Positions 6,369 to 64,000 of a DNA stretch of 64,000 nt are shown here, piece after piece (position 1 is the first letter of the stretch; the number at the start of each line of letters is the position of its first letter). Under the pieces are notes generated by a model that saw only the letters and a list, made by a program, of their open reading frames with translations, made no database searches and had not been told where the DNA came from. The position numbers were made by a program, and so were the translations under genes. Source of the stretch: a virus; IMG/VR virus record IMGVR_UViG_3300027969_000063, positions 32,001 through 96,000 of that record, one strand, 5' to 3'.

Positions 6369-6371
6369 ATA

Positions 6372-7481: not shown

Positions 7482-8857
7482 ACTTTAAAGCCTTCAAAGT
7501 TCTTCTTTTCATGTTTAATTTTATTATTGGCACCAATATGACCGGCATCAGCAAGACCGTGTTGTGCTGATTGTTCAACATCATATAGTTTCATCTTGGC
7601 TCTATCGACACCAATGGTGAATCGTTTGTAATATGTTGGATCATTATAACGATTCTTTAATTGTTTAACCATCATCTGACCCATCTCTTCCAATTCTTCA
7701 GAAGAAATCAACGCAAACATTAGGTCGGCGGTTGCAGGCAACCCGAAACTCTCACTCGTATCCTCCAAGCCTGGATCGCTCGATGTGAATCCGCTTCTGG
7801 TAGTTTGAGTAGCAGATACAATAGGAACATTACATTCAACCGCAAGTCCCCTAAGTTCTTCTGCGATGGACTTGACATAGGTGTAAGAGTTAATATTCGC
7901 ACCAGCTTTGATACGAGAAGAACAGCAGATATTAAGATAATCCACAAAAATAATATCAGGCACGAAAGACCTTTTGAGGTTGAGTTCATTTAGTAAAGTC
8001 CTAAAATGTGTTGTCGATGCAGATGCTGTAGGATATTCTTTGATGATTAATTTACCAGTTACCTTCTCTTTAACCTTGGCAACCTTTTTATCATACATAT
8101 CTTTTGGTAAATCCATTAGGTCATCAAGAGTTACATTCAATAAGTTCGCATCTATTCTTTCTGCAATCTTTTCTTCAGCCATTTCAAGTGTAATGTATAA
8201 CACATTTTTTCCTTGAACCATAGCACCGGCAGCAACATGACACATAAACAAAGATTTACCAACGCCAGTACCAGCAAGAGCAATATTAAGGGTTTTGGCA
8301 GGTAATCCTCCCTTTGTAATTTTGTTAAAACATTCCAAATCAAAGGGGATTCGTTCTTCTTTTCTGTGATAGAATTCATATCGTTCATCGCTGTTCTCTA
8401 AGTAATCATGTCCTACGGAGTTATCGAAACTGACGGCCAAAGCGTCCGATAATATAGAGGGAATTGCACCTTTCTCGTTGCTTTTGTCCTTACCATCGAG
8501 AATTGAAATAGCCCGTAATACACCATTGTATATCGCCTTCTCTTGGCAAAACTTTTCCGTTTTGTCAACAAGCCATTGAACCTCGGTTTCTGTTTTGCTA
8601 CCAGCCTCAATTTCTTGGAGATAAGATTCACAGTTCTTAACTTCGTCATCCGAGAGATTATTCTTTTCTTTGAAGGCAATACTAATTGCTTCAATCGTAG
8701 GCGAAGAATTGTAAGTTTCCGTGAATGATGTAATCTCATTAAATAATGTCTTTTCAGTTCTGTCTGAAAAATATTCAGGCTTTAAAAATGGTAATACTTT
8801 CCTAAGAAAATCTTCATTGTAAATCAGATTCTTTAATATCGTCTGTTCCAGTTTCAT
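7478..8857 (-). CDS. gp41: replicative DNA helicase (T4 gp41, DnaB-like)
   Basis: LAGTGVGKS Walker A, YITLEMAEE, IFVDYL, SESFGLPATAD, KQLKNRY. Confidence 0.97.
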   Translation of the reverse strand: MKLEQTILKNLIYNEDFLRKVLPFLKPEYFSDRTEKTLFNEITSFTETYNSSPTIEAISIAFKEKNNLSDDEVKNCESYLQEIEAGSKTETEVQWLVDKTEKFCQEKAIYNGVLRAISILDGKDKSNEKGAIPSILSDALAVSFDNSVGHDYLENSDERYEFYHRKEERIPFDLECFNKITKGGLPAKTLNIALAGTGVGKSLFMCHVAAGAMVQGKNVLYITLEMAEEKIAERIDANLLNVTLDDLMDLPKDMYDKKVAKVKEKVTGKLIIKEYPTASASTTHFRTLLNELNLKRSFVPDIIFVDYLNICCSSRIKAGANINSYTYVKSIAEELRGLAVECNVPIVSATQTTRSGFTSSDPGLEDTSESFGLPATADLMFALISSEELEEMGQMMVKQLKNRYNDPTYYKRFTIGVDRAKMKLYDVEQSAQHGLADAGHIGANNKIKHEKKNFEGFKV

Positions 8858-43301: not shown

Positions 43302-44921
43302 TTAAGATAGTTTAACGTAACCCCAATAAACAGTTTGTTCCGATCCGCTGGTGTTATTAATTCCAAAAACAAATACATTGTTTGTTGTGCCTGATACAGT
43401 AGCAGTTGATATTGCACCTACTGTTCCCACAATTTGATCCGGTATACTTGTGATTGTAATTGGACTTCCACCACCTGTATAATTCCAAGCGTATTGATTA
43501 CCTAATACTGGCACATTACTATTGGTAACATGTACGGTAGCAATGTATGATATAATCCCGTTAGGAATATTACCTCTAACCCATAACTGATAAGCGCCAT
43601 TTATTGGAACTGTAATACTGTATGTGCTTGCGCCGGTAGTAACAGTCCAACTACCTGAAGTGAGATTTGCTCCGCTTGCACCTTGAACACCCGTAGCACC
43701 ATTGGTGCCAGAAGGACCGGTTGCACCACTAACACCAGTAGCACCATTAGTACCTGCTGAACCGGTGGCACCATTAATACCTGTACCTGTAGCACCGTTA
43801 GTGCCGGCAGAACCTGTGGCACCAGTAACACCTGAAGCACCCGATACTCCACTAGCACCATTTGTACCATTTGTACCAAAAGGACTTAAATCGGTTACAT
43901 AGATGGCATACTGAGTACCGTTAGTGGCGTATACTGGTAAAACTATAGCATCGTTGGTATTAATTACCCAAGTAGGATGGCCTGGATCGTCACCTAATGA
44001 CACATTAGATTGAGGAGTATTCATTAATTTTGTAACAGTATTGGCAGGATCACCAACAGGTACAAAAGTCCAATTTGTATTTCCAAGACCAATTATTTCA
44101 TTTATGTAAGCATCTACTACTGAGCCATCTTTTCTAACAGTAAAACCATTTCCATAAGAATTAAGATTAAATTCTCCTAGTGCTACTGTATAACTGCCTG
44201 TAAAACTATCTAGTAATAATAAATTACCAGCACCAATAGTACCTTGTGGTCCAGTAGCACCAGAAACACCAGTTGCGCCTTGTGTACCTACACCAGTTGC
44301 ACCATCAATACCTGTAGCACCATTAGTACCCGCTGAGCCTGTGGCGCCATTGGTACCGGCAGAACCTGTAGCACCATCAACACCATTTACTCCACTAGCG
44401 CCATTAGTACCGGCTGAACCTGTGGCACCATTGGTTCCATTTGAACCGGTAGGACCAGTAGCACCATCAATACCTGTAGCACCATTTGAACCAGAGGAAC
44501 CCGTGGCACCATCAATACCTGTAGCACCATTAGTACCTGCTGAACCTGAAGCACCTTGTACGCCTGTAGCACCATTTGTACCGGCTGAACCTGTGGCACC
44601 ATTAGTACCTGCTGAACCTGAAGCACCTTGTACGCCTGTGGCACCGTTGGTACCGGCAGAACCTGTAGCACCAGAAATACCAGTAGCACCTTGGCCACCA
44701 GTAACACCACTAGCGCCTTGAGCACCTGTAGCACCTTGATTACCTTGAATACCAACATGGTCAACATAATATTTTGAAGCCATTGCATGGCCGCCACGGG
44801 TTACACCATCATGGATTGTTATTGTGTGGTTTGTTGAATCGATAATAAATTCACCATTAGCTCCAGTAGTATTAGCAACTACTGTGTTGGCAAATCTTTT
44901 AAATTGTAATGTTCTTGGCAT
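43302..44921 (-). CDS. collagen-like fibre protein with an Mtd-N-like anchoring domain
   Basis: N-terminal LQFKR...GEFIID...IHDGVTRGG; two (Gly-X-Y)n blocks separated by and followed by globular domains. Confidence 0.8.
   Translation of the reverse strand: MPRTLQFKRFANTVVANTTGANGEFIIDSTNHTITIHDGVTRGGHAMASKYYVDHVGIQGNQGATGAQGASGVTGGQGATGISGATGSAGTNGATGVQGASGSAGTNGATGSAGTNGATGVQGASGSAGTNGATGIDGATGSSGSNGATGIDGATGPTGSNGTNGATGSAGTNGASGVNGVDGATGSAGTNGATGSAGTNGATGIDGATGVGTQGATGVSGATGPQGTIGAGNLLLLDSFTGSYTVALGEFNLNSYGNGFTVRKDGSVVDAYINEIIGLGNTNWTFVPVGDPANTVTKLMNTPQSNVSLGDDPGHPTWVINTNDAIVLPVYATNGTQYAIYVTDLSPFGTNGTNGASGVSGASGVTGATGSAGTNGATGTGINGATGSAGTNGATGVSGATGPSGTNGATGVQGASGANLTSGSWTVTTGASTYSITVPINGAYQLWVRGNIPNGIISYIATVHVTNSNVPVLGNQYAWNYTGGGSPITITSIPDQIVGTVGAISTATVSGTTNNVFVFGINNTSGSEQTVYWGYVKLS
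43670..44750 (-). repeat. collagen-coding repeats (GATGSAGTN / GATGIDGAT units) in two blocks, ~43670-43880 and ~44240-44750
   Basis: Recurrent gcaccattagtacc / gaacctgtggcacc units on the + strand. Confidence 0.8.
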
Positions 44922-48511: not shown

Positions 48512-49308
48512 GTTATCCTATCCCATAAATCTCTCCACCCTAAGTGAGTGGTTCTTATTGTTGCCGGTTCATTAAATGAAAGATGATACGCTACAGATGG
48601 TATTGGACTAAACACCTTTACATGACCTGTACCTTCTTCATAGTTCTCATATAACTTGTTTATAAACTGATCTTCTGCCGCATCAGGAAAGGTCAAAGCC
48701 AATCCTTTAAATACTTCAAAATTATCTTTAAAGAAACTTTGATGTGCAAATATGGTATTGGCAGTATGGCGAACTTGCCTCCAATACCGAACACCATCAT
48801 ATAGAAGAATAGTAAGATACTCTCTACCTACATCATATCTAAATGCACAATCATAAGGATACAAAGCAATTGGATTTGGATATTTTTGTGTCAAATAATT
48901 ATAAGCAATCAACATACTGTTTAAAGCATTCTCTTCGTGCAAATAATCATCTTCTACCGAATATACCATATCTTCGGACTCAGCACACATCTCAAACTGC
49001 TTAAGTGCTGATTGTTTAAATCCTTTAGTTTCTAAACTGATTAACTCAACTTCTTTACTACACTTACTTAACACTTCTCTTAAATCTACCAAAAAAGATT
49101 CAATACTATTATCATCCAGTACGGTCAATTTAATATCTTCAACGACCACACAGTTATTGATTGCATTTACTAAAGACGTGGCACACTTTAGGACCATACC
49201 TTTCCTGTCGTCACCACATATTCTTGGTAACTGCTGAACTGTTGGTTGATTAGTGCCTTGCTTAGGTACTTCTTTCTCACAAGTCCTTAGTATGACATGA
49301 AGCTTCAT
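48508..49308 (-). CDS. GT-A (GT2-like) glycosyltransferase, paralog
   Basis: VLDDNS, VYSVEDDYLH, FSPIPSVAYH. Confidence 0.7.
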   Translation of the reverse strand: MKLHVILRTCEKEVPKQGTNQPTVQQLPRICGDDRKGMVLKCATSLVNAINNCVVVEDIKLTVLDDNSIESFLVDLREVLSKCSKEVELISLETKGFKQSALKQFEMCAESEDMVYSVEDDYLHEENALNSMLIAYNYLTQKYPNPIALYPYDCAFRYDVGREYLTILLYDGVRYWRQVRHTANTIFAHQSFFKDNFEVFKGLALTFPDAAEDQFINKLYENYEEGTGHVKVFSPIPSVAYHLSFNEPATIRTTHLGWRDLWDRIT

Positions 49309-50726
49309 GCAATAATCAATTCTGGATCACACATGGCATCCAATGGAGGTTCTCCTTTGAATAGTATTGCCACCACTTCACCATCTTCCGATTTAACATG
49401 TGCATCAAAGCCTAAAGAATTTAATATCTGTGTCATAGAATGTTTAGTAAATCCAGTTTTATGTAACATACCTTCACCCCAAGATTCTGTAAACCCACGA
49501 TGACCATAAATCATATCAATGACCGAAACTGGACCAGCAGAGCTTTCATATACAGTATCAAGTAAATTGTTTTCAATCTTATCTGCAATAGAACCAATAT
49601 CTGGTACTCTGATGACGGCAAAGCCACCATCTTTTAATACTCTCAACATACTATTAAAGATTTTTGGTAGGTCATGAAAGTAATTATGTTCTACCACATG
49701 AGAAGCCCAAATGGCATCCACAGATTCATTAGGTATACCTTCAAAATCAATGATAGAAGATTTCATGTGTGCTGTATCATTTTCATAAGCATCAACACGA
49801 ATCTCTTTCCAATCTAAAAAGTATTTTGATTGTGATTCTAGTTTTGTTTTACCACAACCAATGTTAACCACAATTTTTTTATCGGTCGTAAACAGGTCTT
49901 GGTTATCATTTCGTGCAAAACTGGTAACATCATCACCGTGTTTATTCCACCAATCTTCCCACTTAATGTAAGGATCTTTTTCATTCTCACCTTGAAAGTG
50001 CAATGCTAAAGATGGTATTGGTGACATGACCACATACTCTCTTTCTTGCCATAATCTGTTTACCGATTCATCTTCCAGCTTTGGATTATGAGGATGGTCG
50101 TTAACAATCTTCTCGAACAGGTCCCATTCTTTCACCACGACTTCGTGAGTTGTCATGAAGGTACACGGTACCTGATAAGTTTGCCGCCAATGGCGATCTG
50201 GTCCTTGAACGATCCGAACAGGTACCACATTGTGGTCCCAATACCGGTATGGATCATTGTATGGTAACAATGAAAGTGGCTGAGGAAACTTAGGTTGGTA
50301 TTTTTGCCATTGTAATACCATTTGATAAAAACATTCTTCGTCAAAAAGGTAATCATCTTGTGCCTGAAACACCAAATCTTTACCATCATCACGCATACTC
50401 TCATAACACTCACGCAATGATGCCATTAAACCAAAACCTTCAATATGTTTTAGATTGGTTGGAAAGTTAGCCAACGAGAGATTATCTTTTAATATTTGAA
50501 TACCATTCTCATCGGAGTGGTCATCAAATGCATTCAGTTTAAACTTCCAAGTTGGTAATTTCTCTTGAGCATAGTTAATGGATTTAATTAAAGAACGGGT
50601 ACAACGCTTTACGATTTCTGTTTTATCGTTACACCCGTATCTTGTAAATTTAAATCCTTCATATGGTACATAATTATCTTGGCTGTTTGATTTATTATGT
50701 GTTTGTAAAGCAATCAAAAATTCCAT
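49305..50726 (-). CDS. GT-A glycosyltransferase fused to a SAM methyltransferase
   Basis: N-terminal FDDHS/AQDDYL/SPIPSLALH; C-terminal VNIGCG, ASHVVEH, LKDGG. Confidence 0.75.
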   Translation of the reverse strand: MEFLIALQTHNKSNSQDNYVPYEGFKFTRYGCNDKTEIVKRCTRSLIKSINYAQEKLPTWKFKLNAFDDHSDENGIQILKDNLSLANFPTNLKHIEGFGLMASLRECYESMRDDGKDLVFQAQDDYLFDEECFYQMVLQWQKYQPKFPQPLSLLPYNDPYRYWDHNVVPVRIVQGPDRHWRQTYQVPCTFMTTHEVVVKEWDLFEKIVNDHPHNPKLEDESVNRLWQEREYVVMSPIPSLALHFQGENEKDPYIKWEDWWNKHGDDVTSFARNDNQDLFTTDKKIVVNIGCGKTKLESQSKYFLDWKEIRVDAYENDTAHMKSSIIDFEGIPNESVDAIWASHVVEHNYFHDLPKIFNSMLRVLKDGGFAVIRVPDIGSIADKIENNLLDTVYESSAGPVSVIDMIYGHRGFTESWGEGMLHKTGFTKHSMTQILNSLGFDAHVKSEDGEVVAILFKGEPPLDAMCDPELIIA

Positions 50727-50728
50727 TA

Positions 50729-52504
50729 TTAACTCTTCTCAGGTTTAGGTGCTGTTAAGGCTGCCTTCCGTTTATCATCACGGCGTTTAATGGTATCTTT
50801 AAGTTCTTGAATCGTATAACGTGGTGGTTTGTGAACTTGTAACAACATGATAGTTGCTTCTGCCACATTAGATTGAGTATGTAAAGCAAACTGTAATTGC
50901 TCTTCGGTAATTTCCTTATCTTTCAACATTCTCATCCACTCACCAACATAGGTATACTTGACATCACATACATCAATATCAATACCCAATTCAATTGACA
51001 ATGTACTGTCTGAACGACCAATCTCCATGCCATCAATTAAACTCTTTTGATTAAACAAAGCAAATGTTCCAGGAGTTAATGGACGCTTGTGTGTAGGATC
51101 ATCCCAAGCATGGTCTGAACGATGATGTGGGAACTGTACTTCCCATACGGCACCATTCTCTGATACACGATACATTTCTTTAATGATATCTACGATTGAA
51201 TGTGTATCATTACCTAAATGTTCTAGAATATCTTTAGCAACGATGTGCTGGAACTCATCATCTTGAAATGGCCATGGTACTGATTGTAGATCCACGATTT
51301 GATCTGGTTCAACATTCTCTGAAGCATCCACATTAAGAAAGCCATCCATCTTAAAGAAACCACAACCCATGTTCATCTTCTTAGGCTCTTTATCGTGACT
51401 TTCATGTTGAACTGGTTTTAAATTAAATTTCTTTTCAAAATCTTTGTAGAGTTTTTGAAATGTTCCGTTCCATGATTTGGCTTCTTGCTGACGATACAAA
51501 GTAACACAATCATAATAAGGAGATTTGGTACTCTGTGGTGCACCAAATGTCCATGTATGATATGGTAGAATTGGTGTAAGAATCCAAGTTTGTTTACCAA
51601 GTGCAGCAGCCGCATGAGCAATACTGGTACAAGAGGTAATAACAATGTCAAGATTCTCCATTGCAGCCAATGTATCTTCCCAAGAAGTTAATTGATGTTG
51701 TAAATCAATAATGTTCTCTGGCAAATCAATAATGTTTTGGTCACGCTGTAATGAATACAACTGAACTTCATCGTACTTACCAAGTTCTGTTAAGAAACCA
51801 GGAGGGAATCTACGGAACTGTTGATGTTCAAATTTAGGATTACCAGCCCAACGAATACCAACTTTAAGTTTGTCAGATTTAATAATATCTTTCCACTCTT
51901 CAATCTTTTCTGGTAAAGCATGTAGGTATTTTTTACTTGGGAAATTTTTGAATGTATTGCCTGATACCCAGCCTGCTGAGAAACCTGGTACCCAATAATC
52001 ATGAGCAACTAAGTGGCTTTGATTTCGTAGAATAACACCATCACAACCTTCAATACGCTCAAATACCGATACCACTTCTGGTGATGCGGCCAAATAAACT
52101 TTATCTGCACCTAGTTTTTTAAATGATTCTACAAAACGAGAGTGAATAATTTCATCACCAAATCCACCCTCTAAAGAGATGATAATTGATTTACCTTTGA
52201 TATCATCTTTTTCAGGATTAAAAATGGGAGCATTTGTTTTGAGTGGAGGAGAACCATAGACATTAATAAATCGTCCTGATTCCAACATCTGGCAACCTTC
52301 TTGATAATTGCCATCTTGTAACATGAACCAGCCACGATTAAATGTGTGCCGTGTCCACATTTCAGGATTACCAAGTTCACCTTTGGTGTCTGGAATACCT
52401 TCTGGTCCTAGTTTCTGTAACTTATCAGATATTTGGCGAGCTTTAACAAACTCACCTTTTAACATCAACTGCAATTCACTATCAATATCATGCATTGAAT
52501 TCAT
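50729..52504 (-). CDS. GT-B (GT9-like) glycosyltransferase fused to a SAM methyltransferase
   Basis: EGGFGDEI, GIRWAGNP, LDIVITSCTSIAHAAAALGK; C-terminal MNMGCG, KDILEHL, WDDPTH. Confidence 0.75.
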   Translation of the reverse strand: MNSMHDIDSELQLMLKGEFVKARQISDKLQKLGPEGIPDTKGELGNPEMWTRHTFNRGWFMLQDGNYQEGCQMLESGRFINVYGSPPLKTNAPIFNPEKDDIKGKSIIISLEGGFGDEIIHSRFVESFKKLGADKVYLAASPEVVSVFERIEGCDGVILRNQSHLVAHDYWVPGFSAGWVSGNTFKNFPSKKYLHALPEKIEEWKDIIKSDKLKVGIRWAGNPKFEHQQFRRFPPGFLTELGKYDEVQLYSLQRDQNIIDLPENIIDLQHQLTSWEDTLAAMENLDIVITSCTSIAHAAAALGKQTWILTPILPYHTWTFGAPQSTKSPYYDCVTLYRQQEAKSWNGTFQKLYKDFEKKFNLKPVQHESHDKEPKKMNMGCGFFKMDGFLNVDASENVEPDQIVDLQSVPWPFQDDEFQHIVAKDILEHLGNDTHSIVDIIKEMYRVSENGAVWEVQFPHHRSDHAWDDPTHKRPLTPGTFALFNQKSLIDGMEIGRSDSTLSIELGIDIDVCDVKYTYVGEWMRMLKDKEITEEQLQFALHTQSNVAEATIMLLQVHKPPRYTIQELKDTIKRRDDKRKAALTAPKPEKS

Positions 52505-52562: not shown

Positions 52563-55500
52563 TTACCTTCTAAAGTTACTTCCAGCACCACCAGAGAATA
52601 GGTTGGCGGTATAACCTGTGGCTAATTGTGCTACTAATACCGGACTAGATCTTGTGACAGTTGATCCATCACCGTACTGACCTACAGCATTATTACCCCA
52701 AGCATACAGGTAACTATTGGTTTCATTATCAGTTGTAATGGCTATCGTGGTATTATTACCTATAGCAACATCAATAATATTTAAATTTGATATGGCTATA
52801 TTTACAATGTCGGGAGTGGACCTACTGGTTGGAACAGTATTAAAACCAAAAGCATTATTGGTATTTGCACCCCATGCATATAAGGAATCAGATAAATTAA
52901 TACCAAAAGCTGTACTAAGTCCAATAGATAAAGATTTCCAACCTAAACCTTTTGAATTTTTAATATTTGATTGATTTATTATGGCAGCTCGATCTGTAAC
53001 ACTGGCAGGACTAACTGTGGTTCCAATACCCATTTGTCCATAAGTATTGTTTCCATAACCATAAGATACATTATTATTATCTAAAAGAAGATAATATTGT
53101 ACACCACCACCGCCACCAGTAACAGCTGTTTTCCATGGCACTCCAGTTGATGCGGAATTTGAAACGATTGATGGTACACCTCCGCCATTTCCCCAATTAA
53201 ACAAACGGCCAGCAATATCAATAGCTACCGAACTATTACCATTACAATTTATAAAAGAAAAAGAAGATCCACTAACAACCGTTACAGGAGTTGATTTAGA
53301 AATTACGGTATTATCACCTATTTGACCACTAGAGTTACCGCCCCATCCAAATAAACGGCCTGTGTTAGTAATAGCATGGCCAGCTGTTACCATTGTCCAT
53401 GAAACTGTGGTAGAACCTTCAGCACCAATTTTAACCGGAGATGATCTATTAATTAAAGTACCGTCACCTAAATCACCACTACTATTATCACCCCATGCAT
53501 ATAAAGCACCAGTTATATCAATAGCAAAATTATTATAAGAACCAGCATATACAGATGACCATGAAGATGTACCAATTTTTACAGGAGAAGATTTATTAAT
53601 AGTTGTACCATCACCGAATGCGCCAAATAGACCAGTTCCCCAAATGTATAAAGCACCCGTAGTATCAATAGCAATAGTGTTGACATATCCAGCACTTACT
53701 GCTGACCATGATTTGGTACCAATTTTTACTGGAGAAGATTTATCAATCGTAGTACCATCACCTAATTGGCCATTAACATTATAACCCCATGTATAAAGAG
53801 CACCTGTAGTATCAATAGCTGCTGAATGTCGATTTATTCCAACACTAAGTATAGTCCAAGAATTGCCAAACAAAAGTTGTGGAACAGTTTGTCTTTCAGT
53901 AAATGTATTACCTGCTATACCGTTACCTAACATTCCATCATTATTGGAACCCCATGTATAAAGAGAACCATCATCACTTATACCACCAGAAGTGGGGCCA
54001 AGAGCGCCACCAGTTCTAAGTAATTTCCAAGATGTAAATGGCTTAGAGTTTGTAATTATTATTGGTTGTGATTTACCAATTGTTGTACCATCACCTAATT
54101 GTCCATATTGGTTATCACCCCAAATATAATTATATCCATTTTTAACTCCTGTAGTATTTTGATAGTGCGCTTTTACTGAAGTCCAAGGATAAACATCAAT
54201 TAATACAGGCGAAGATTTATCAACTATAGTACCGTCACCCAATCGGCCAGAATTATTGGAGCCCCATGCATGCAATTGGCCAGCAGCAGTAAGACCGACT
54301 GTAAAATAGTTACCAACACTCACTATTGACCATGAACTTGTACCAATTTTTACCGGTGTAGATTTACCAATTGTTGTGCCATCGCCTAAATTACCACTTG
54401 AATTAGCGCCCCATGTGTACAGAGCACCAGTAGTAGTAATAGCAGCAGTATGGGAACCATCAGCAGATACCGCTGACCATGAAGAATAACTGTTTAATGC
54501 TTCGTTTATCACAGAAACTAATACTGGTGAAGATTTAGAAACTGTTGAGGTATCACCTAATTGTCCTTGATTATTATAACCCCATACATATGCATTGTTT
54601 GCAGTAGTAATGGCTGCTGTGTTATATTGTGAAGCACTCACGGCTGACCATGAAGAAGAGGAATAACCACTAGTAGTTGTCGAAAGCTGAACAGGTACCG
54701 ATCTACTAGCTGTTGAAAGGCCACCTAAGTTACCATAAGGATTGTAACCCCATAACCATAAAGAACCAAGCGTATCAATAGCAGTAGAAGTAGAATATCC
54801 AGCAGAAACAAAATTAAAAGAAATGTTTGATGTGGTATCATAAGGATAACCTAATACAACAGGAGAACTTGTTAAATTGCTAGGTAATATATTAAAATAA
54901 TTAATACTACCCCAATTCCATAAAAGACCATTAATATCAATCGCTGATACATTTGATGTCATTGAAAATACTTTTGTCCATGAGCTAGTACCAATTTGTA
55001 CTGGTGATGATTTATTGATTGTAGTGCCATCACCTAATTGGCCTTGAGCATTATAACCCCAAACGTATAAAGCACCATTTGTGGCAATACCTGCTGATGT
55101 TGAAAAACCAGATGATATTGCTGACCATGAACTAGAACCAATTTTTATTGGTACTGATCTATTAGATGTTGTACCGTCACCTAAGAAACCTAAGTTATTT
55201 TGGCCCCATGCATACAAAGAACCAGTAGTATCAATACCAAGAACATAACCAGATCCAGCACTTACTGTAGTCCATGAAGAATAAATGGCAGCTGCATTAT
55301 TTCCAATACCAATGAATACTGGTGAAGATTTATTAATTGTGGTACCGTCACCTAAACCACCATAAAGATTATAACCCCATGTATATAAATTACCAGAAGT
55401 GGTAATACCAATAACACCGAAAATATCTGAACCTATGAATGACCATGAGCTTGTACCAATTTGTACAGGTGAGGATTGATTAATTGTTGTACCATCACCT

Positions 55501-58500
55501 AGTTGGCCATAAGTATTACTACCCCATGCAAATAATCGGCCATTAATATCAATAGCTCTGTGACCATCGTATCCTGCAGCTAACTTAGACCATGAACTTG
55601 TACCAATTTTAACGGGTGATGATTTATTAATTGTAGTACCATCACCCAATTCACCATTGCTATTATTGCCCCATGTAAATAAGCTGCCATCTTTTGTAAT
55701 ACCAGCTGTATTAGATGGACCACTTATGGATATGATTGTCCATGAACTCGAACCAATTTTTATTGGAAATGATTGATTAGTTGTATTACCGTTGCCTAAC
55801 TGACCAGTAGAATTAGTACCAGTCATCCATAAACCACCATTAACATCAATTCCTCCTGTGTGGTTGTAACCAAGGCTCACTATTGTAAATGAAGAACCAC
55901 TATTAATTAATACCGGTGAGGATTTAGCAACTATAGTACCGTCACCTAATGCACCATTGGTGTTATTGCCCCATGCATACCAAGCACCAGAAGAGGTAAT
56001 ACCTGCCATGTAACTTACACCTGCAGCCACAAATGCCCATGAAGATGTGCCAATTTGTACAGGTGAAGATTTAGTGACTGTGGTATTATCACCTAATTGG
56101 CCGGCAGTATTTTGACCCCATGTGTATAGACGGCCGTTAATATCAATACCTGCTGAAGCAAGTCCTTTTACGCTTACTCTAGTCCATGAAGAGCTACCAA
56201 TTTTAATTGGTGCTGATTTATTATTTGCAGTATTATCACCTAATTGACCATTAGGATTATAACCCCATGTATATAAAGCACCAGTAGAGGTAATAATTGC
56301 TTGATTATATTGACCAGAAGCTACTTGATTCCAAGAAGAATAATATACTGAAGATGTTTGAATTTTCACCGGCAATACATAAGAAAGATTTAAACCTAAA
56401 TCCGTACCAATTTCTCCAAAACTATTATCTCCCCATGCCCATAAAGCACCAGTAGAATCAATTGCGCTCGTATGATACGAACCAACAGATACAGATGTCC
56501 ATGAAGAACTACCAATTTGTACAGGTGATGATTTGGCAACCAATGTACCATCACCTAAATTACCAAAACCATTAGCTCCCCAAGTAAATAACCGACCATT
56601 AATATCAATTGCTGCAGTGTTATTACCAACACTTACTTTTGTCCATGAGCTAGTACCAATTTGTATTGGTGATGATTTATTAACCGTAGTACCATCGCCT
56701 AATTGTCCATTAGAGCCACTACCCCACGCAAACAATCGACCTACAGTATCAATTGCTGTTACATAAGAAGTGCCTGCAGCTATAGCTAACCATGAAGAAG
56801 AACCAATTTTTACTGGAGAAAATCTAGTAGTTACTGTACCGTCACCTAATTGGCCTTGTTGATTGTCACCCCATGACCACAATGATGAATCTGAATTTTT
56901 AATGGCTAAAAAGAAATTAGCAGGACCTCCAGTAATTTGTTTCCATGCACCTGGTATACTTGGTGTTGTAACTACTGGTGAAGATTTATTAATTGTTGTG
57001 CCATCACCTAATTGTCCAAGAGAATTATCACCCCAAGCATATAATTTTTTAAGCGAATCGCTAGCAATGGTGTGTGCTTGGCCTGCACTTACTGCTGACC
57101 ATGATGAAGTACCAAGTTGTACTGCAGAAAGTTTATCAATCGTGTTACCGTTACCCAATTGACCTGCAGCATTACCACCCCATGTATATAATTTACCACT
57201 AGTGGTGATAGCCGCTGTGTGCGATACGCCAGCAGTTACAACTGTCCATGAAGAATAGACGTTTAATACAGGATCATATGCAGTAACGAATACAGGAGAA
57301 GATTTGGAAGTTGCCGTACCATCGCCTAATTGGCCTGATGTACCAAGACCCCACATGTATGCTGTATTTGCAGTAGTAACCGCAGCAGTATGAGTACCAC
57401 CAGCAGATACAGATGTCCAAGATAAAATTGATGGATTGCTAGTTGGGCCAACTTTAAATGCTGTAGTTTTGTTTATTGTTGTGCCATCACCTAATTGACC
57501 GGTAGCATTACCACCCCAAACATATAACGTGTTTGCAGTAGAAATAGCAGCAGTATGAGAACCACCAGCAGATACGGATGTCCAAGATACAATTGGATTA
57601 GTTGGAGCTAAAACAAATACAGGCGATGATTTGCTAACAACAGTATTATCACCCAATTCACCAGAGGTACCAAGACCCCATGTAAACAGAACACCAGTTG
57701 TTGTGATACCCGCTGTGGTTGAACCGCCTGCACCTATTGATGACCATGAGCTTGTACCAATTTTTACTGGAGAGGATTTATTAACAGTAGTACCATCGCC
57801 TAATATACCACCAGCATTATTACCCCATGTATATAAAGCGCCTGTAGTATCAATAGCGGCTATACTACCATTACCAACGTTTGACACAACTGCAATCCAT
57901 GAACTTGTACCAATTTTTACTGGAGAGGATTTGGCAATTGTAGTACCATCACCCAAGTAACCTGTGTCAGAAGCATTAGCACTCCATGTAAACAAAGATC
58001 CATCAATAGTAATACCTGCACCAGCAGTTACTACTGACCACGAACTAGATCCAATTTTAACAGGAGAAGATTTAGTAACACTTGTGTTATCACCTAATTG
58101 GCCAACATTACCAAAACCCCAAGCATATAAAGCACCAGTAATATCAATAGCCCAAGCATTAAGTGAACCAGCAGCTACTTTTGTCCATGAAGAAGAACCA
58201 ATTTTGACTGGTGAAGATTTAGTAACTGTAGTATTATCACCCAATGCACCAAAACTACCACTACCCCATGTCCATAAAGCACCAGTGGAATCAATCGCAA
58301 CTGCGTGCTGATTTCCAGCAGCTATTGTACTCCATGAATTATTACCAATTTGTACTGGTGAAGATTTAGTAACTGTAGTACCGTCACCTAATTGTCCAAC
58401 GTTGTTGTAACCCCATGCATACAGAGCACCAGCAGTAGTAATACCAAACGCAACTTGAACTCCTGCAGCTACTACTGACCATGATGATGATCCAATTTTT

Positions 58501-60668
58501 ACTGGTGAAGATTTATTAACTGCTGTATTATCGCCTAATTGACCTATAGCGCCATTACCCCATGTCCATAAACCACCAGTAGTATCAATAGCAACTGCAG
58601 CTGATATGTTATAACTTATTTGACTCCATGTGCTTGGTATAGTAACAGTTGTTTGTACAGGAGTAGATTTATTAATTGTAGTACCATCACCTAATTGGCC
58701 GGTAGCATTATTACCCCAAGCAAACAATTTACCATCTGATGTAATACCGGTTGAGTGTGTACTACCAGCACTTACTGATGACCATGAACTGGATCCAATT
58801 TGTACAGGTGAAGATTTGTTTATTGTTGTACCATCACCTAAGTGACCGTTAGTATTTTGACCCCAAGTATATAAGGCACCGGTAGTGGTGATACCTGCTG
58901 TATGTGAAGCACCAGCTGATGCTACTGACCACGATGATGTACCAATTTTTACTGGTGAAGATTTGGCAACTGTAGTATTATCACCAATTTGACCGGTAGC
59001 ATTAGAACCCCACGCATATAAATTACCATTAATATCAGTAGCGGTAGTATGTATATCACCAGCAGATACAGATGACCAAGAAGAAGATCCAATTTTTACT
59101 GGTGAAGATTTTGAAACTATTGTGCCATCGCCTAATTGTCCTGAAGTACCAAAACCCCAAGCATATAAAGCACCAGTAGAATCAATAGCAACTATATGTG
59201 AATTGCCTGCAGATACAGATGACCATGAAGATGTACCAATTTTAACTGGTGAAGATTTTGAAACTACTGTATTATCACCCAATTGTCCTATGGAATTATT
59301 ACCCCAAGTATATAAGGCACCGGTAGTGGTGATACCTGCTGTAAATGTTCCATTTCTATTAGCTGAAAGTTGTTTCCAAGTAGGCGCTGAGATTATAGGA
59401 ATTAATACGGGTGACGATCTATTAGTTGTGGTGCCGTCACCAATTTGACCAGTAACATTATAACCCCATGCATATAAATTACCATTAATATCGGTAGCAG
59501 ATGTGTGATATTGTCCAGCACTTACTGTTGTCCATGAAGAAGAACCAATTTTAACGGGAGAAGATTTAGCAACGGTAGTATTATCACCTAAACCACCATA
59601 ATTATTATAACCCCAAGCATAGAGCGCACCAGTAGAATCAATGGCGGCCATATGTGAAAAACCGGCTGATACTATTGACCATGAGTTTGAACCAATTTTA
59701 ACAGGAGAAGATTTAGAAACTATTGTATTATCGCCTAATGCACCATAATTGGTGTTATTGCCCCATGTATACAAAGCACCATTAGTGGTGATACCTGCTG
59801 TAAATCCTGCTCCAATACTAGTTACAATTTGTTTGAAAGAAAAATTACCATTTGCAAAACCAATTTGTGTTGGTGTACTATAATATGGTTGACCCGTTAT
59901 GTAACCAACTTGACCCGCATCATTTTGACCCCAAGCCCATAGTCCGCCATTTGTTGTAATACCTGTTACATATTGACTTCCAGCACTTACAGATGTCCAT
60001 GAAGATGTACCAATTAATACCGGCGATGATTTATTAATTGTAGTACCATCACCTAATTGATTACTACTATTTAAACCCCATGTATACAAAACGCCAAGTG
60101 AATCAATTGCTGCTGTATAAGATTGTCCTGCACTCACTATACTCCAAGATTTATTTCCAAGTTGTGTTGGTGTTGATTTGTCAATTGTAGTACCATCACC
60201 TAATTGGCCATTATTATTAAGGCCCCATACAAACAAAGCACCATCAGTAGTACGAATGGCTGCAAAATGATTGCCAACACCTTGACCTCCTGTAATTGAT
60301 TTCCAAGGATACTCAACAGTTTTTGTTATTGATATTGCTACTGGTGAAGATTTGTTAATTGTAGTACCATCACCAATTTGATAAGCTGAATTATTACCCC
60401 ATGTGTATAATTTATTACCTGTTACAACACCAAAATTAGCATAACCAGATTCAAGTGCTGTAATACTTCCTAAAGGTATTGATGTTGGAGTGGATTTACT
60501 GACTGTTGTACCATCACCAAGTTCTCCGTTGCTAGCGTTACCTAATACATATAAAGTTTGAGCTGCATCTAATATAGCTGTAGTACCAGAGCTAGTTGTT
60601 GCTATTTTTGTAACAGTATTAGCAGTTGATAAAACTGGAACTTGTGTTGGAAATGAAGTAGTGGTCAT
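52563..60668 (-). CDS. giant RCC1/BLIP-II repeat beta-propeller protein (2701 aa, ~52 repeats), probable virion appendage
   Basis: Repeat consensus SSWxxVSAGxxHxxAIDxxGxLYxWGxNxxGQLGDGTTINKSSPVxIG. Confidence 0.88.
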   Translation of the reverse strand: MTTTSFPTQVPVLSTANTVTKIATTSSGTTAILDAAQTLYVLGNASNGELGDGTTVSKSTPTSIPLGSITALESGYANFGVVTGNKLYTWGNNSAYQIGDGTTINKSSPVAISITKTVEYPWKSITGGQGVGNHFAAIRTTDGALFVWGLNNNGQLGDGTTIDKSTPTQLGNKSWSIVSAGQSYTAAIDSLGVLYTWGLNSSNQLGDGTTINKSSPVLIGTSSWTSVSAGSQYVTGITTNGGLWAWGQNDAGQVGYITGQPYYSTPTQIGFANGNFSFKQIVTSIGAGFTAGITTNGALYTWGNNTNYGALGDNTIVSKSSPVKIGSNSWSIVSAGFSHMAAIDSTGALYAWGYNNYGGLGDNTTVAKSSPVKIGSSSWTTVSAGQYHTSATDINGNLYAWGYNVTGQIGDGTTTNRSSPVLIPIISAPTWKQLSANRNGTFTAGITTTGALYTWGNNSIGQLGDNTVVSKSSPVKIGTSSWSSVSAGNSHIVAIDSTGALYAWGFGTSGQLGDGTIVSKSSPVKIGSSSWSSVSAGDIHTTATDINGNLYAWGSNATGQIGDNTTVAKSSPVKIGTSSWSVASAGASHTAGITTTGALYTWGQNTNGHLGDGTTINKSSPVQIGSSSWSSVSAGSTHSTGITSDGKLFAWGNNATGQLGDGTTINKSTPVQTTVTIPSTWSQISYNISAAVAIDTTGGLWTWGNGAIGQLGDNTAVNKSSPVKIGSSSWSVVAAGVQVAFGITTAGALYAWGYNNVGQLGDGTTVTKSSPVQIGNNSWSTIAAGNQHAVAIDSTGALWTWGSGSFGALGDNTTVTKSSPVKIGSSSWTKVAAGSLNAWAIDITGALYAWGFGNVGQLGDNTSVTKSSPVKIGSSSWSVVTAGAGITIDGSLFTWSANASDTGYLGDGTTIAKSSPVKIGTSSWIAVVSNVGNGSIAAIDTTGALYTWGNNAGGILGDGTTVNKSSPVKIGTSSWSSIGAGGSTTAGITTTGVLFTWGLGTSGELGDNTVVSKSSPVFVLAPTNPIVSWTSVSAGGSHTAAISTANTLYVWGGNATGQLGDGTTINKTTAFKVGPTSNPSILSWTSVSAGGTHTAAVTTANTAYMWGLGTSGQLGDGTATSKSSPVFVTAYDPVLNVYSSWTVVTAGVSHTAAITTSGKLYTWGGNAAGQLGNGNTIDKLSAVQLGTSSWSAVSAGQAHTIASDSLKKLYAWGDNSLGQLGDGTTINKSSPVVTTPSIPGAWKQITGGPANFFLAIKNSDSSLWSWGDNQQGQLGDGTVTTRFSPVKIGSSSWLAIAAGTSYVTAIDTVGRLFAWGSGSNGQLGDGTTVNKSSPIQIGTSSWTKVSVGNNTAAIDINGRLFTWGANGFGNLGDGTLVAKSSPVQIGSSSWTSVSVGSYHTSAIDSTGALWAWGDNSFGEIGTDLGLNLSYVLPVKIQTSSVYYSSWNQVASGQYNQAIITSTGALYTWGYNPNGQLGDNTANNKSAPIKIGSSSWTRVSVKGLASAGIDINGRLYTWGQNTAGQLGDNTTVTKSSPVQIGTSSWAFVAAGVSYMAGITSSGAWYAWGNNTNGALGDGTIVAKSSPVLINSGSSFTIVSLGYNHTGGIDVNGGLWMTGTNSTGQLGNGNTTNQSFPIKIGSSSWTIISISGPSNTAGITKDGSLFTWGNNSNGELGDGTTINKSSPVKIGTSSWSKLAAGYDGHRAIDINGRLFAWGSNTYGQLGDGTTINQSSPVQIGTSSWSFIGSDIFGVIGITTSGNLYTWGYNLYGGLGDGTTINKSSPVFIGIGNNAAAIYSSWTTVSAGSGYVLGIDTTGSLYAWGQNNLGFLGDGTTSNRSVPIKIGSSSWSAISSGFSTSAGIATNGALYVWGYNAQGQLGDGTTINKSSPVQIGTSSWTKVFSMTSNVSAIDINGLLWNWGSINYFNILPSNLTSSPVVLGYPYDTTSNISFNFVSAGYSTSTAIDTLGSLWLWGYNPYGNLGGLSTASRSVPVQLSTTTSGYSSSSWSAVSASQYNTAAITTANNAYVWGYNNQGQLGDTSTVSKSSPVLVSVINEALNSYSSWSAVSADGSHTAAITTTGALYTWGANSSGNLGDGTTIGKSTPVKIGTSSWSIVSVGNYFTVGLTAAGQLHAWGSNNSGRLGDGTIVDKSSPVLIDVYPWTSVKAHYQNTTGVKNGYNYIWGDNQYGQLGDGTTIGKSQPIIITNSKPFTSWKLLRTGGALGPTSGGISDDGSLYTWGSNNDGMLGNGIAGNTFTERQTVPQLLFGNSWTILSVGINRHSAAIDTTGALYTWGYNVNGQLGDGTTIDKSSPVKIGTKSWSAVSAGYVNTIAIDTTGALYIWGTGLFGAFGDGTTINKSSPVKIGTSSWSSVYAGSYNNFAIDITGALYAWGDNSSGDLGDGTLINRSSPVKIGAEGSTTVSWTMVTAGHAITNTGRLFGWGGNSSGQIGDNTVISKSTPVTVVSGSSFSFINCNGNSSVAIDIAGRLFNWGNGGGVPSIVSNSASTGVPWKTAVTGGGGGVQYYLLLDNNNVSYGYGNNTYGQMGIGTTVSPASVTDRAAIINQSNIKNSKGLGWKSLSIGLSTAFGINLSDSLYAWGANTNNAFGFNTVPTSRSTPDIVNIAISNLNIIDVAIGNNTTIAITTDNETNSYLYAWGNNAVGQYGDGSTVTRSSPVLVAQLATGYTANLFSGGAGSNFRR

Positions 60669-60693
60669 ATTTTTTTATTTTATTAATATCTAA

Positions 60694-60701
60694 TATTTAT
60701 C
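60694..60701 (-). promoter_or_regulatory. late-promoter-like GATAAATA overlapping the upstream stop
   Basis: One mismatch to TATAAATA, ~26 nt before the ATG at 60668. Confidence 0.5.
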
Positions 60702-63700
60702 TAAGGTTTCCTAATTGGCCATTACTATCAAGACCCCATGTGTATAAAGTATTGGTACTGTCAATTGCTGCTGAATGTCCTTGTCCAGTTGCAACAGAAA
60801 TCCAATTTGATTTACCTACACTAATTTGAACAGGTGAAGATTTGTTAATTGTAGTACCATCACCCATTTGACCGGAACTATTAAGACCCCATGCAAATAA
60901 ACGACCACTTGAATCAACTGCTAATATTTGGCCAAAAGATGCACTTACTGATACCCATGAAGAATTGCCAACTTGTACCGGTGAAGATTTGTTAATTGTA
61001 GTACCATCACCTAAACTACCCCAAGTATTATCACCCCACATAAACAACCGACCTTGAATGTCAATACCTACCGTAGTTCTATTAGAAGAAGCTTGAACAA
61101 AAGCCCAAGAACTGTTGCCTATTTTATTAACCCATGAAGTTTTTGTTGTTACTGTACCATCACCTAATGCACCACTAAGTGCATCACCCCATGCATATAG
61201 AGCACCAGCCGTGGTAATACCTACTACATATCCACCAGGAGTAGCTCCTGTACGGCCTCCACCAACATCTACAATTGTCCAAGAAGATCCAGTTAGTGGT
61301 TGACCAGTGCTTGAACCAAAACCACCAGAAGTATTGTCACCTTTTTCACCGGTAACTGAATATCCTGTAAAGGTAGCAACACCATTGTTATTTAAAAGGA
61401 ATGTACTGCAATAAGCTGTTCCTCCAGCATTATTTGCAGAATTGGTGCCAACAAAACTAAATGATGATCCAGCATAACATAATACCGGTGAAGATGTGGA
61501 TGCTCCGGCACTAGCATTTGCTGGATTTCCTCGATCATTAAAACCCCATGCATATAAAGCACCTTGAGTAGTAATAGCTATACTAATAAAATGAGAGGCT
61601 TTTACAAATGTCCATGAAGAAGTACCAAGTTTTACTGGAGATGATTTAGAAACTATTGTATTATCACCTAATTGACCAGAAGTATTCAAGCCCCAAACCC
61701 ATAAACCACCAGTAGTATCAATAGCCATTGTATGAGAAGCACCAAGACTTATTTTTTTCCAAGTTGCAGATGTGTTATAAAAATTGGTAGTAACCAATGT
61801 TTTTTGCGGATTATTTACAAGCGGATTAGTTCCTAAACCTAATTGACTATTGGTATTATTTCCCCAACCATATAAACTACCGGATATTCCACGGCCATAG
61901 AAGAAGTTTCCTGTACCTGATGATATTAAATTAAATGAAGTATCTGCCACTACTGTATCTAAACCAATTTGTACGGGTGAAGATTTGCTAGTAGTGGTGA
62001 CATCACCTAATTGATAAGAACTAGCAAGACCCCATGTAAACAGTCGGCCATTAATATCAAGACCTAAATTATTATTATTTGAAAATGGATTACCATTTAC
62101 CACGGACCAAGATGATGAACCAATTTTTATTGGAACGGATCTACTAATTGTTGTACCATCACCTAATTGACCAGAAGCATTAACACCCCAAGCATACAAA
62201 GCACCAGTTGAATCAATAGCATTTGATAAACCAACATAAGACCAAGATGTAGTATTGTAAGAATATGGAACAGAATTAATTGTTTGAACATTTCTATTGG
62301 TTGTTGTGCCATCACCTAATTGGCCAGAAGTATTAAGACCCCAAGTATATACATTACCTGTAGTATTAATAGCTGCTGCATGAGTACTACCAGCACTTAC
62401 TGTAGTCCATGATAATGAACCAACTTGTACTGGTGATGATCTAGTTGCACCACCATCACCTAATTGACTAGTAGCACCATTACCCCAAGAATATAAACGA
62501 CCGAGTGTATTGAGAGCAAATGTACTATCAAGTCCAGCACTCACTACAGTCCAAGAATAATATGTTGAAAGAATGACAGTTGCACCAATTTGTACTGGAG
62601 AAGATTTATCAACAATAGTATTATCACCTAATTGGCCATAATTATTAACACCCCAAGCAAACAAACGACCAGTATTATCTATAGCAGAACTACCTTGGCC
62701 AGAAGATAATTTAGTCCACGATGAAGTACTAACTTGTACTGGTGATGATCTATTAGTGATTGTACCATCACCAAATGCGCCGCCAGCATTTGAACCCCAA
62801 GCCCATAAATTACCAATAGAATCAATAGCTGTGGTAGCATAGTTGCTAGTAACTACTTTTGTCCAAGCTCTTGTACCAATTTTTACCGGCGATGATTTAT
62901 TAATTGTTGTGCCATCACCCATAAAACCAGAAGCATTCCATCCCCAAGTATATAATGCACCAGTAGTATCGATAGCCGCTGTAGTAGAAAAACCTACTGA
63001 TATTAATATCCATGATGAAGTACCAATTTGTACCGGTGAGGATTTACCAGCTGAGGTGTTATCACCTAATTGGCCTAAGGAATTATTACCCCACATAAAC
63101 AAACGACCATTAATATCAATTGCTGCACCCCTTGAATCACCACAACTTACCATTGACCATGAACTCGTACCAATTTGTACTGGTGAAGATTTAGCAACTA
63201 AAGTACCATCACCTAATTGACCAACAGCGTTATCACCCCAAGCATATAAACGACCATTGGTATCGATAGCTAACACATTACTGTATCCAACACTTACTGC
63301 TGACCATGAACTTGTACCAATTTTAGCAGGTGAAGATTTAGAAACTCCGGCATTATCACCTAATTGTCCGCTAGCTGATGAACCCCAAGTCCACAAAGCA
63401 CCAGTAGAATCAATAGCTGCCGACATAGCATTAACAACACCAAATCCGCCGGCGCTTACTTTACTCCATGTGCGATATCCGGTTGGTGTATCCAAATTTG
63501 ATCCAATTTGTATTGGAGTGGATTTACTAATTGTAGTACCATCACCTAAATTACCAACTGAATTTTGACCCCATGCCCATAATGTTGAATCTTCAGCACG
63601 AATGGCTAAAGTATGAGAATTATTTAATCCTCTCGACACTTCACTCCATGTAGAAGATATTGTTGTTGAAGTATTTGCTTGTTGTATTATTACTGGTGAA

Positions 63701-64000
63701 GATTTACTAATTGTAGTACCATCACCTAGTTGGCCACTAGTATTTTGACCCCATGTAAACAAACGGCCAATAGTATTAATTGCAGTAGTATAAGAATTAC
63801 CAAGAGCTACGGATGACCACGAATCGGTTCCTATTTGTACAGGTGAAAATTTATTAATTGTGGTACCATCACCTAGTTGGCCAACATTATTTAAACCCCA
63901 AGCAAACAAAGCTCTTGCACTTGTAATAGCTGCTGTATGAGTACCACCAACAGCTACGGCTGACCATGAAGAATAAACATATGTTGTTTCATTATAAACA
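60697..64000 (-). CDS. giant RCC1-repeat protein, 5'-truncated by the window edge (21 repeats visible)
   Basis: Frame stays open from 63909 to the window end (...VYNETTYVYSSWSAVAVGGTHTAAITSARALFAWG). Confidence 0.88.
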   Translation of the reverse strand, partial: VYNETTYVYSSWSAVAVGGTHTAAITSARALFAWGLNNVGQLGDGTTINKFSPVQIGTDSWSSVALGNSYTTAINTIGRLFTWGQNTSGQLGDGTTISKSSPVIIQQANTSTTISSTWSEVSRGLNNSHTLAIRAEDSTLWAWGQNSVGNLGDGTTISKSTPIQIGSNLDTPTGYRTWSKVSAGGFGVVNAMSAAIDSTGALWTWGSSASGQLGDNAGVSKSSPAKIGTSSWSAVSVGYSNVLAIDTNGRLYAWGDNAVGQLGDGTLVAKSSPVQIGTSSWSMVSCGDSRGAAIDINGRLFMWGNNSLGQLGDNTSAGKSSPVQIGTSSWILISVGFSTTAAIDTTGALYTWGWNASGFMGDGTTINKSSPVKIGTRAWTKVVTSNYATTAIDSIGNLWAWGSNAGGAFGDGTITNRSSPVQVSTSSWTKLSSGQGSSAIDNTGRLFAWGVNNYGQLGDNTIVDKSSPVQIGATVILSTYYSWTVVSAGLDSTFALNTLGRLYSWGNGATSQLGDGGATRSSPVQVGSLSWTTVSAGSTHAAAINTTGNVYTWGLNTSGQLGDGTTTNRNVQTINSVPYSYNTTSWSYVGLSNAIDSTGALYAWGVNASGQLGDGTTISRSVPIKIGSSSWSVVNGNPFSNNNNLGLDINGRLFTWGLASSYQLGDVTTTSKSSPVQIGLDTVVADTSFNLISSGTGNFFYGRGISGSLYGWGNNTNSQLGLGTNPLVNNPQKTLVTTNFYNTSATWKKISLGASHTMAIDTTGGLWVWGLNTSGQLGDNTIVSKSSPVKLGTSSWTFVKASHFISIAITTQGALYAWGFNDRGNPANASAGASTSSPVLCYAGSSFSFVGTNSANNAGGTAYCSTFLLNNNGVATFTGYSVTGEKGDNTSGGFGSSTGQPLTGSSWTIVDVGGGRTGATPGGYVVGITTAGALYAWGDALSGALGDGTVTTKTSWVNKIGNSSWAFVQASSNRTTVGIDIQGRLFMWGDNTWGSLGDGTTINKSSPVQVGNSSWVSVSASFGQILAVDSSGRLFAWGLNSSGQMGDGTTINKSSPVQISVGKSNWISVATGQGHSAAIDSTNTLYTWGLDSNGQLGNLR

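Follow-up and report, generated by a model that had tools for sequence, protein, structure and literature searches.

The gene examined here lies on the minus strand, at positions 52563-60668, of a window of 64,000 nucleotides taken from a T4-like myovirus record of 105.5 kb in IMG/VR (IMGVR_UViG_3300027969_000063, positions 32,001 to 96,000), and its product of 2701 residues, called P0001, consists almost wholly of RCC1 repeats. We propose that P0001 would be the downstream half of a split giant RCC1 gene in the tail/neck structural module of this phage, and that the two products of the gene pair would form a very large multivalent fibre or adhesin of seven-bladed RCC1-type propellers. Three runs of repeats, R14-R20, R29-R35 and, less cleanly, R44-R50, would be self-contained propellers plugged into the loops that join strand D of one blade to strand A of the next (D-to-A loops), the same loops in which relatives carry LamG domains. 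The flanking blades would then form discontinuous propellers around these insertions, making the architecture at least partly nested. A reading of the window made from its letters alone (the sequence-only reading) had gone further and arranged the repeats into a branched tree of seven complete propellers inserted into one another. We tentatively favour the presence of some nested or discontinuous propellers in P0001, a claim that includes this exact tree as a special case and to which we give somewhat less than an even chance.

The P0001 open reading frame (ORF) is genuine and is truly built of 52 RCC1 blades. The Pfam model PF00415 (RCC1) scores 1225.8 bits against a cut-off of 21.7 and covers 47 stretches of the protein, and PF25390 (RCC1-like domain) scores 1658.5 bits against a cut-off of 150 in 12 stretches. 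A hidden Markov model (HMM) trained on P0001's own repeats yields 52 units plus a terminal half, and a blade-phased HMM, in which each blade runs through strands A-B-C-D, yields exactly 52 blades equal to R1-R52. The earlier count of 52 full repeats and a terminal half is therefore borne out. In blade register, the sequence outside the 52 blades comprises an A/B half blade at the C terminus (residues 2680-2701) and an additional D-like strand at the N terminus (residues 1-18). To our knowledge, and in the match lists of the fold and PDB searches, all solved RCC1-like domains have seven blades. A PDB sequence search returned single RCC1-like domains only, and a megablast search of the sequence against deposited phages gave no match.

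The evidence for nesting begins with the linkers between blades. The canonical D-to-A linker of P0001 has four residues, and we defined as long any linker of seven or more. Long linkers precede R3, R6, R9, R14, R21, R22, R23, R25 and R29, and further along R36, R39, R40, R41, R44, R48, R51 and R52; the junctions that the sequence-only reading had called long fall at the same positions in the blade-register parse. Between long linkers the blades form segments of 2, 3, 3, 5, 7, 1, 1, 2, 4, 7, 3, 1, 1, 3, 1, 3, 3, 1 and 1. Two kinds of long linker can be distinguished. Entry-type linkers, found before R3, R6, R9, R14, R25 and R44, come before an A strand of unusual type (W-K-x or W-x-Q), after which the A-B loop is longer, whereas exit-type linkers, found before R21-R23, R36, R39-R41 and R48, end in ..SW and lead into a canonical ...SAG..HTAA blade. 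In the region R3-R13 (residues 113-673, positions 58650-60332), for example, runs of 3, 3 and 5 blades are each begun by a long entry-type linker.

Two uninterrupted runs of exactly seven blades stand out in this pattern. R14-R20 with its entry linker (residues 674-1019, positions 57612-58649) has long linkers on both sides, is kept in all five members of the family and is ~91% identical in the orthologue P0002, and R29-R35 with its entry linker (residues 1437-1786, positions 55311-56360) occurs only in P0001 and P0002. The third run that had been described as uninterrupted, R44-R50 (residues 2206-2560, positions 52989-54053), is less clean, since R48 is preceded by a long linker and R49 and R50 are degenerate. 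Exact seven-blade runs between long linkers exceed chance both in P0001 (two runs, p=0.05) and in the orthologue P0019 (three runs, p=0.002). In addition, the runs are mutually out of frame, with leftover groups of 13, 8, 8 and 2 blades in P0001 and of 13, 4, 5 and 2 in P0019. If the seven-blade runs are closed rings, then the groups of 4, 5 or 8 blades between them cannot form consecutive sevens, and the remaining blades must close discontinuously.

That such runs are self-contained propellers is probable, judging from simpler relatives. Proteins of 14 or 21 blades have their sole long linker or spacer exactly between one set of seven and the next (7|11|7, 7|17|7 and 7|335|7|419|7 are examples), which argues that in this superfamily a long D-to-A linker marks the edge of a contiguous propeller. 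Two comparisons with relatives of P0001 also favour nesting. In P0019, P0003 and P0015, a single contiguous seven-blade run (six short linkers, with an entry linker in front and the first of a triple of exit-type linkers behind) is found where P0001 and P0002 carry a block of 4+[7]+3 blades with new long linkers at both junctions, although this correspondence is one of linker pattern only, as hypervariability of the block prevents blade-by-blade orthology. In P0015, P0003 and P0007, LamG domains are likewise placed in D-to-A loops and are then followed by the same exit-type linker. It is the combination of out-of-frame runs, a seven-blade insertion with new flanking long linkers and these LamG insertions that keeps the nested reading alive.

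The 4+7+3 block itself, R25-R38 (residues 1235-1941, positions 54846-56966), is hypervariable. Its 14 blades are about 50% identical between P0001 and P0002, whereas R13-R23 and both termini are 90-100% identical and the two proteins as a whole 73%. The block is a candidate host-range determinant or recombination cassette. It is preceded by R21-R24 (residues 1020-1234, positions 56967-57611), in which three exit-type linkers of 9, 10 and 12 residues are followed by one canonical blade, and is succeeded by R39-R43 (residues 1942-2205, positions 54054-54845), which holds a second triple of exit-type linkers and then two canonical blades. Conservation within the family is highest (83-100% identity) in the C-terminal portion formed by R51, R52 and the A/B half blade (residues 2561-2701, positions 52566-52988). 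When the conserved C-terminal 165 residues were used as a query against proteins of up to 2000 residues, the family gained no new members.

Blade numbers in the family follow a simple rule. Among the proteins with both termini in common, five in all, blade counts are 52, 52, 45, 45 and 73, each equal to 3 modulo 7, and the blade counts of P0001 relatives differ in steps of exactly seven. Other giant RCC1 proteins mostly have multiples of seven. Since blade number modulo 7 is strictly conserved in the family, every blade would seem to belong to a seven-membered ring.

Another giant RCC1 gene lies immediately upstream. P0007, an RCC1 and LamG protein of 4228 residues whose C-terminal 1100 codons lie on the minus strand at 60697-64000, gives 73 blade hits, and its chain stops just past strand C of its last blade (...GQLGNLR). 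P0001 in turn starts with MTTTSFPTQVPV..., which is the D strand missing from P0007, and a canonical four-residue linker joins this strand to R1. The two genes are in different frames and are separated by an A+T-rich spacer of 28 nucleotides (60669-60696), the junction in the window spanning 60616-60776. An orthologous contig encoding P0009, also with 73 blade hits, and P0002 keeps the same mid-blade split, and the N-terminal D-like strand with R1-R2 (residues 1-112, positions 60333-60668) is 95-100% identical in P0002. At the outer ends of the pair stand half blades, C/D at the start of P0007 and A/B at the end of P0001, a layout shared with several single-chain giants and with a 700-residue cyanophage protein. 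P0007 and P0001 are therefore best read as one giant gene of ~6,900 residues cut in two within a blade.

R1 and R2, left over in the sequence-only reading, are not a free root of the tree: canonical short linkers tie them to the last blade of P0007, and the last five P0007 blades together with R1 and R2 (b69-b73+R1+R2) make up a further seven-blade run bounded by long linkers. The pair totals 125-126 blades. At about residues 2370-2405 of P0007, a 36-residue gap between blade hits resembles a degenerate blade; counting it would bring the pair to 126 (18 x 7) blade equivalents. An untyped linker grammar was also applied to P0007 and P0001 together and set aside: the 126 blades parse only if the degenerate P0007 blade is assumed, and 79% of shuffles parse as well. 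The most elaborate version of our proposal, a two-chain object of 18 propellers in which propellers and LamG domains occupy D-to-A loops at four or more levels, with at least one blade shared between the chains, to give a dendritic multivalent adhesin, is in our judgement unlikely. A complex prediction that paired the two terminal half blades (P0007 residues 1-150 with P0001 residues 2577-2701) gave values of ipSAE (interaction prediction score from aligned errors) of 0.12 and 0.09 against a mark of 0.32, which speaks neither for nor against the pairing.

The layout of the ends recurs more widely. The unrelated metagenomic giants P0004, P0005, P0007, P0022 and P0027 share an N terminus of the form ML.Y....P.Q......LY.WG (a C/D half), a C terminus of the form ..V.AGG..TFK(R/K) (an A/B half), or both. 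Whether the two ends of such RCC1 giants might pair with each other is a question that these termini raise.

A number of results weigh against nesting or against its arithmetic. The statement that every group of repeats sums to seven is arithmetically correct, as R3-R51 can be parsed in full into seven nested groups of seven (with groups assembled as 5+2, 4+3, 3+2+2 and 3+3+1 beside the uninterrupted runs), yet its diagnostic weight is small. A full parse survives in 77% of shuffles of the order of the observed segment sizes, and when 18 long linkers are placed at random, 11% of trials yield one. With objective linker calls, 18 distinct full parses of R3-R51 were found; that all of them are at least four levels deep speaks for nesting. 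Because most shuffles parse and the parses are many, the sum to seven is poor evidence and selects no particular tree.

We also used a typed stack automaton in which an entry-type linker opens a propeller, the propeller closes at seven blades, and each closure must fall on a long linker. On P0001, from which the rule was itself derived, the automaton runs with no violations and three discontinuous closures (p about 0.001-0.002), closing R14-20, R9-22, R29-35, R25-38, R6-40 and R44-50. Over 79 giants, however, only nine reach p<=0.05 where about four are expected, and several of the nine are relatives. Comparisons between blades give soft support to nesting. When blades are matched by ring position under the nested numbering, they are slightly more alike than others (identity +0.014, p=0.0085), and no consecutive frame departs from about 0, but this likeness could also stem from segmental duplication of modules. 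The matched conservation of the N- and C-terminal parts of the proposed parent propellers ranks second among 24 pairings. Blade conservation against the 73%-identical P0002 is accounted for at least as well by the nested groups (R-squared 0.66) as by any consecutive frame (0.57-0.66).

Two other signals were considered and discarded. A period of seven among low-scoring blades (R18, R25, R32 and R39) and among blades with the 'AIR..D..LW' motif is inconsistent along the whole of P0001. The trend of blade HMM scores with position in the nested numbering is circular, since blades beside long linkers score low by construction.

Structure prediction with AlphaFold2 also fails to reproduce the proposed brackets. 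Two fragments were modelled from shallow input alignments (27 rows with few true orthologues), and topology was judged from where the VIA alignments began and ended rather than from coordinates or predicted aligned error. The model of residues 1-1200, a fragment that leaves most proposed partner blades outside, has a mean predicted local distance difference test score (pLDDT) of 77.9 and a predicted template modelling score (pTM) of 0.41. It contains one good propeller-like domain, from residue ~15 to residue 395-427 and corresponding to R1-R8, in which all alignment rows fall. Residues 15-395 match UVR8 with a Z score of 38.7 (355 of 369 residues aligned, root-mean-square deviation (rmsd) 3.6), and the RCC1-like domains of HERC2 are matched with a Z score of 36. 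By its match to UVR8, the domain would be a closed propeller of seven four-stranded blades, the alignment speaking to fold rather than to ring size or closure. This domain spans the R2/R3 and R5/R6 brackets of the nested tree.

The second fragment, residues 424-1134, corresponds to exactly R9-R22, and a nested 5+[7]+2 fold and a plain 7+7 fold are both open to it. Its model (pLDDT 79.5, pTM 0.44) shows neither. The best ring covers fragment residues 203-553, that is R13-R19 (Z 29.1, 306 residues aligned, rmsd 3.6), and thus crosses the bracket formed by the long linker TTVTIPSTW at R13/R14; an alternative ring covers 222-567, beginning with the C/D half of R13 and finishing with the A/B half of R20 (324 residues aligned, rmsd 3.9-4.1). 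Among the alignments, none lies at 258-596, as expected for the leaf R14-20, none spans 8-705, as expected for its parent, and none lies at 8-350 or 355-705, as expected for two in-register consecutive propellers. The low-rmsd alignments (2.4-2.8 Å) cover just 4.5-5.5 blades. The modelled ring may be a classical-register ring inserted in a hybrid blade, an eight-bladed ring or an open spiral. The check on overlapping fragments that had been put forward for the tree therefore recovers neither its brackets nor a clean 7+7 string.

Nesting also lacks a precedent, as we know of no deeply nested propellers, and it would make N-terminal blades wait for partners made up to about 2400 residues later. 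The strongest alternative to nesting is that of beads on a string, in which all propellers are built of seven consecutive blades regardless of linker length. Frames would then be set by the termini of the pair, with the C/D half of P0007 and the A/B half of P0001 joined in a classical RCC1 'velcro' closure, and the long linkers would be surface loops, recombination scars of seven-blade cassettes or sites of domain insertion, their sums to seven being numerology. We regard this as a serious possibility, if a somewhat doubtful one. It accords with the prior expectation for tandem RCC1 repeats, with the permissiveness of the parse and with the AlphaFold2 rings that disregard the brackets, and insertions or deletions of exactly seven blades would keep any consecutive frame. 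Many other giants (42-84 blades, mostly in multiples of seven) have almost no long linkers, an 84-blade protein having six for instance, which implies that consecutive propellers need no special linker. In P0083, P0120 and P0041, strong autocorrelation at lags of 7 and 14 blades shows that propellers are consecutive.

A phage protein appears to have the same arrangement. Few deposited phages have RCC1 proteins, and those that do are mostly cyanophages, such as Synechococcus phages BUCT-ZZ01 (ON615601.1) and S-SRM01, whose proteins are 40-48% identical to P0001 over 700 residues. The BUCT-ZZ01 product (positions 6131-8233, 700 residues) is annotated as a 'BNR repeat domain protein', but is actually an RCC1 array encoded beside a tail fibre gene. 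It consists of a C/D half, 13 blades and an A/B half, or 14 blade equivalents, and its low-scoring blades recur with a period of seven. Unlike P0001, it has four-residue linkers only. By its repeat layout, the BUCT-ZZ01 protein appears to be a plain two-propeller protein, and its short linkers and terminal half blades favour the consecutive reading.

Several features of P0001 are left unexplained by a string of consecutive propellers. These include the excess of exact seven-blade runs that are mutually out of frame, and the extra seven blades of P0001 and P0002, which sit in the middle of a seven-blade run and are flanked by new long linkers at each end. The simple relatives, too, have their long linkers at the boundaries of propellers. 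The P0001 family also lacks the periodicity of the consecutive giants, its lag-7 autocorrelation being 0.07, and repeat identity by lag within P0001 gives no period-7 duplication signal. Finally, the R9-R22 model contains no two clean consecutive propellers. We therefore continue to prefer a partly nested architecture, with the reservation already stated.

A third possibility is that the array is mixed or irregular, the clean seven-blade runs being closed while the shorter groups form rings of other sizes, form open arcs, or are completed in trans by P0007 or by a second copy of the protein. The models offer some encouragement, since in the fragment of residues 1-1200 seven-bladed targets align almost equally well to R1-R7 (with the A/B half of R8) and to R2-R8, and the high rmsd of both fragments (3.5-4.1 Å, compared with 2.4-2.8 Å over 4.5-5.5 blades in R9-R22) suggests seven-mers that are not clean. 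The complementarity of the two giant proteins at one split blade also fits. We nevertheless find this reading rather unlikely, because blade number is strictly conserved modulo 7 in the family and the RCC1-like domains solved to date are uniformly seven-bladed.

The exact tree of the sequence-only reading (R14-20, R29-35, R44-50, R9-13+R21-22, R25-28+R36-38, R6-8+R23-24+R39-40 and R3-5+R41-43+R51, up to five levels deep and with R1, R2 and R52 as root) is quite improbable as it stands: it is among the 18 valid parses, six of its seven groups emerge from the automaton without violation and both exit-linker triples play the same role in it by giving a parent its last two blades, but R51 starts with an entry-type motif that leaves R3-5+R41-43 one blade short, R44-50 has an internal long linker and two degenerate blades, R1-R2 are tied to P0007 within a seven-blade run of their own, and the R13/R14 bracket is contradicted by the AlphaFold2 model. 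What stands of the tree is its leaf runs and their out-of-frame pattern, whereas its depth, branching and exact membership are tentative, and a five-level, branched arrangement of seven propellers is one of several possibilities.

If nesting is true, P0001 would exemplify a protein topology that has no precedent, in which a closed repeat domain is inserted again and again into further copies of the same domain. How such a chain folds would be a hard question, and a phage would have a new means of presenting many binding surfaces with a single pair of genes. Even if the array is an ordinary one, the conserved mid-blade split, the steps of seven and the hypervariable block make rules for the evolution of propeller arrays testable.

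P0001 shares its repeat of ~50 residues (PF00415, PF25390) with RCC1, UVR8, the RCC1-like domains of HERC1 and HERC2, and RPGR. Those domains are single seven-bladed propellers, whereas P0001 has 52 blades and the gene pair about 125-126, and they lack the frequent long D-to-A linkers of two kinds; no guanine nucleotide exchange factor or photoreceptor function is implied by the likeness. Many giants do resemble RCC1-like domains in having terminal halves, C/D at the N terminus and A/B at the C terminus. Metagenomes hold thousands of RCC1 relatives of 1500-4700 residues. Giant bacterial proteins made only of RCC1 repeats, from Oscillospiraceae and others, have been described and predicted to play an extracellular role in adhesion (bioRxiv 10.1101/2023.11.21.568195). 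P0001 is like these in carrying RCC1 repeats along its entire length. It differs in being encoded by a phage within a T4-like structural module, in the splitting of its gene within a blade, in its blade number of 3 modulo 7, in its dense long linkers and in the LamG insertions of its relatives.

A closer comparison for discontinuity is UBR5 (PDB 8ewi and 8bja; bioRxiv 10.1101/2022.11.03.515015), which has a solved RCC1-type propeller made discontinuous by inserted domains. UBR5 structures appear among the fold matches of the R9-R22 model. The domains inserted in UBR5 are reportedly small non-propeller modules. In a literature search, the UBR5 papers included, no description of propellers nested inside propellers was found.

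The genomic context is consistent with a structural role. All genes of the window lie on one strand. Downstream of the P0001 gene are two ORFs with methyltransferase domains, small ORFs, a gp13-like adaptor (Ad2/gp13), gp14 and gp15, followed further on by genes for a collagen-like protein, the large terminase, sheath, portal, scaffold and major head protein. This order places P0001 on the fibre or baseplate side of the neck genes. The place of the 14-blade BUCT-ZZ01 array beside the tail fibre gene of a cultured cyanophage also fits such a role. From this position, together with the size and repeat type of the proteins, the LamG domains of relatives and the hypervariable 14-blade block, the P0007/P0001 pair is most likely a putative virion fibre or multivalent host-binding adhesin.

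Two of the neighbouring loci have features of their own. The two methyltransferase ORFs directly downstream of the giant genes (49305-52504) encode proteins of 473 and 591 residues with S-adenosylmethionine-dependent methyltransferase domains (PF08241; phrog_6636). Beside gp15, at positions 43302-44921, a gene in a whisker/fibritin-like position encodes a protein of 539 residues with collagen triple-helix repeats.

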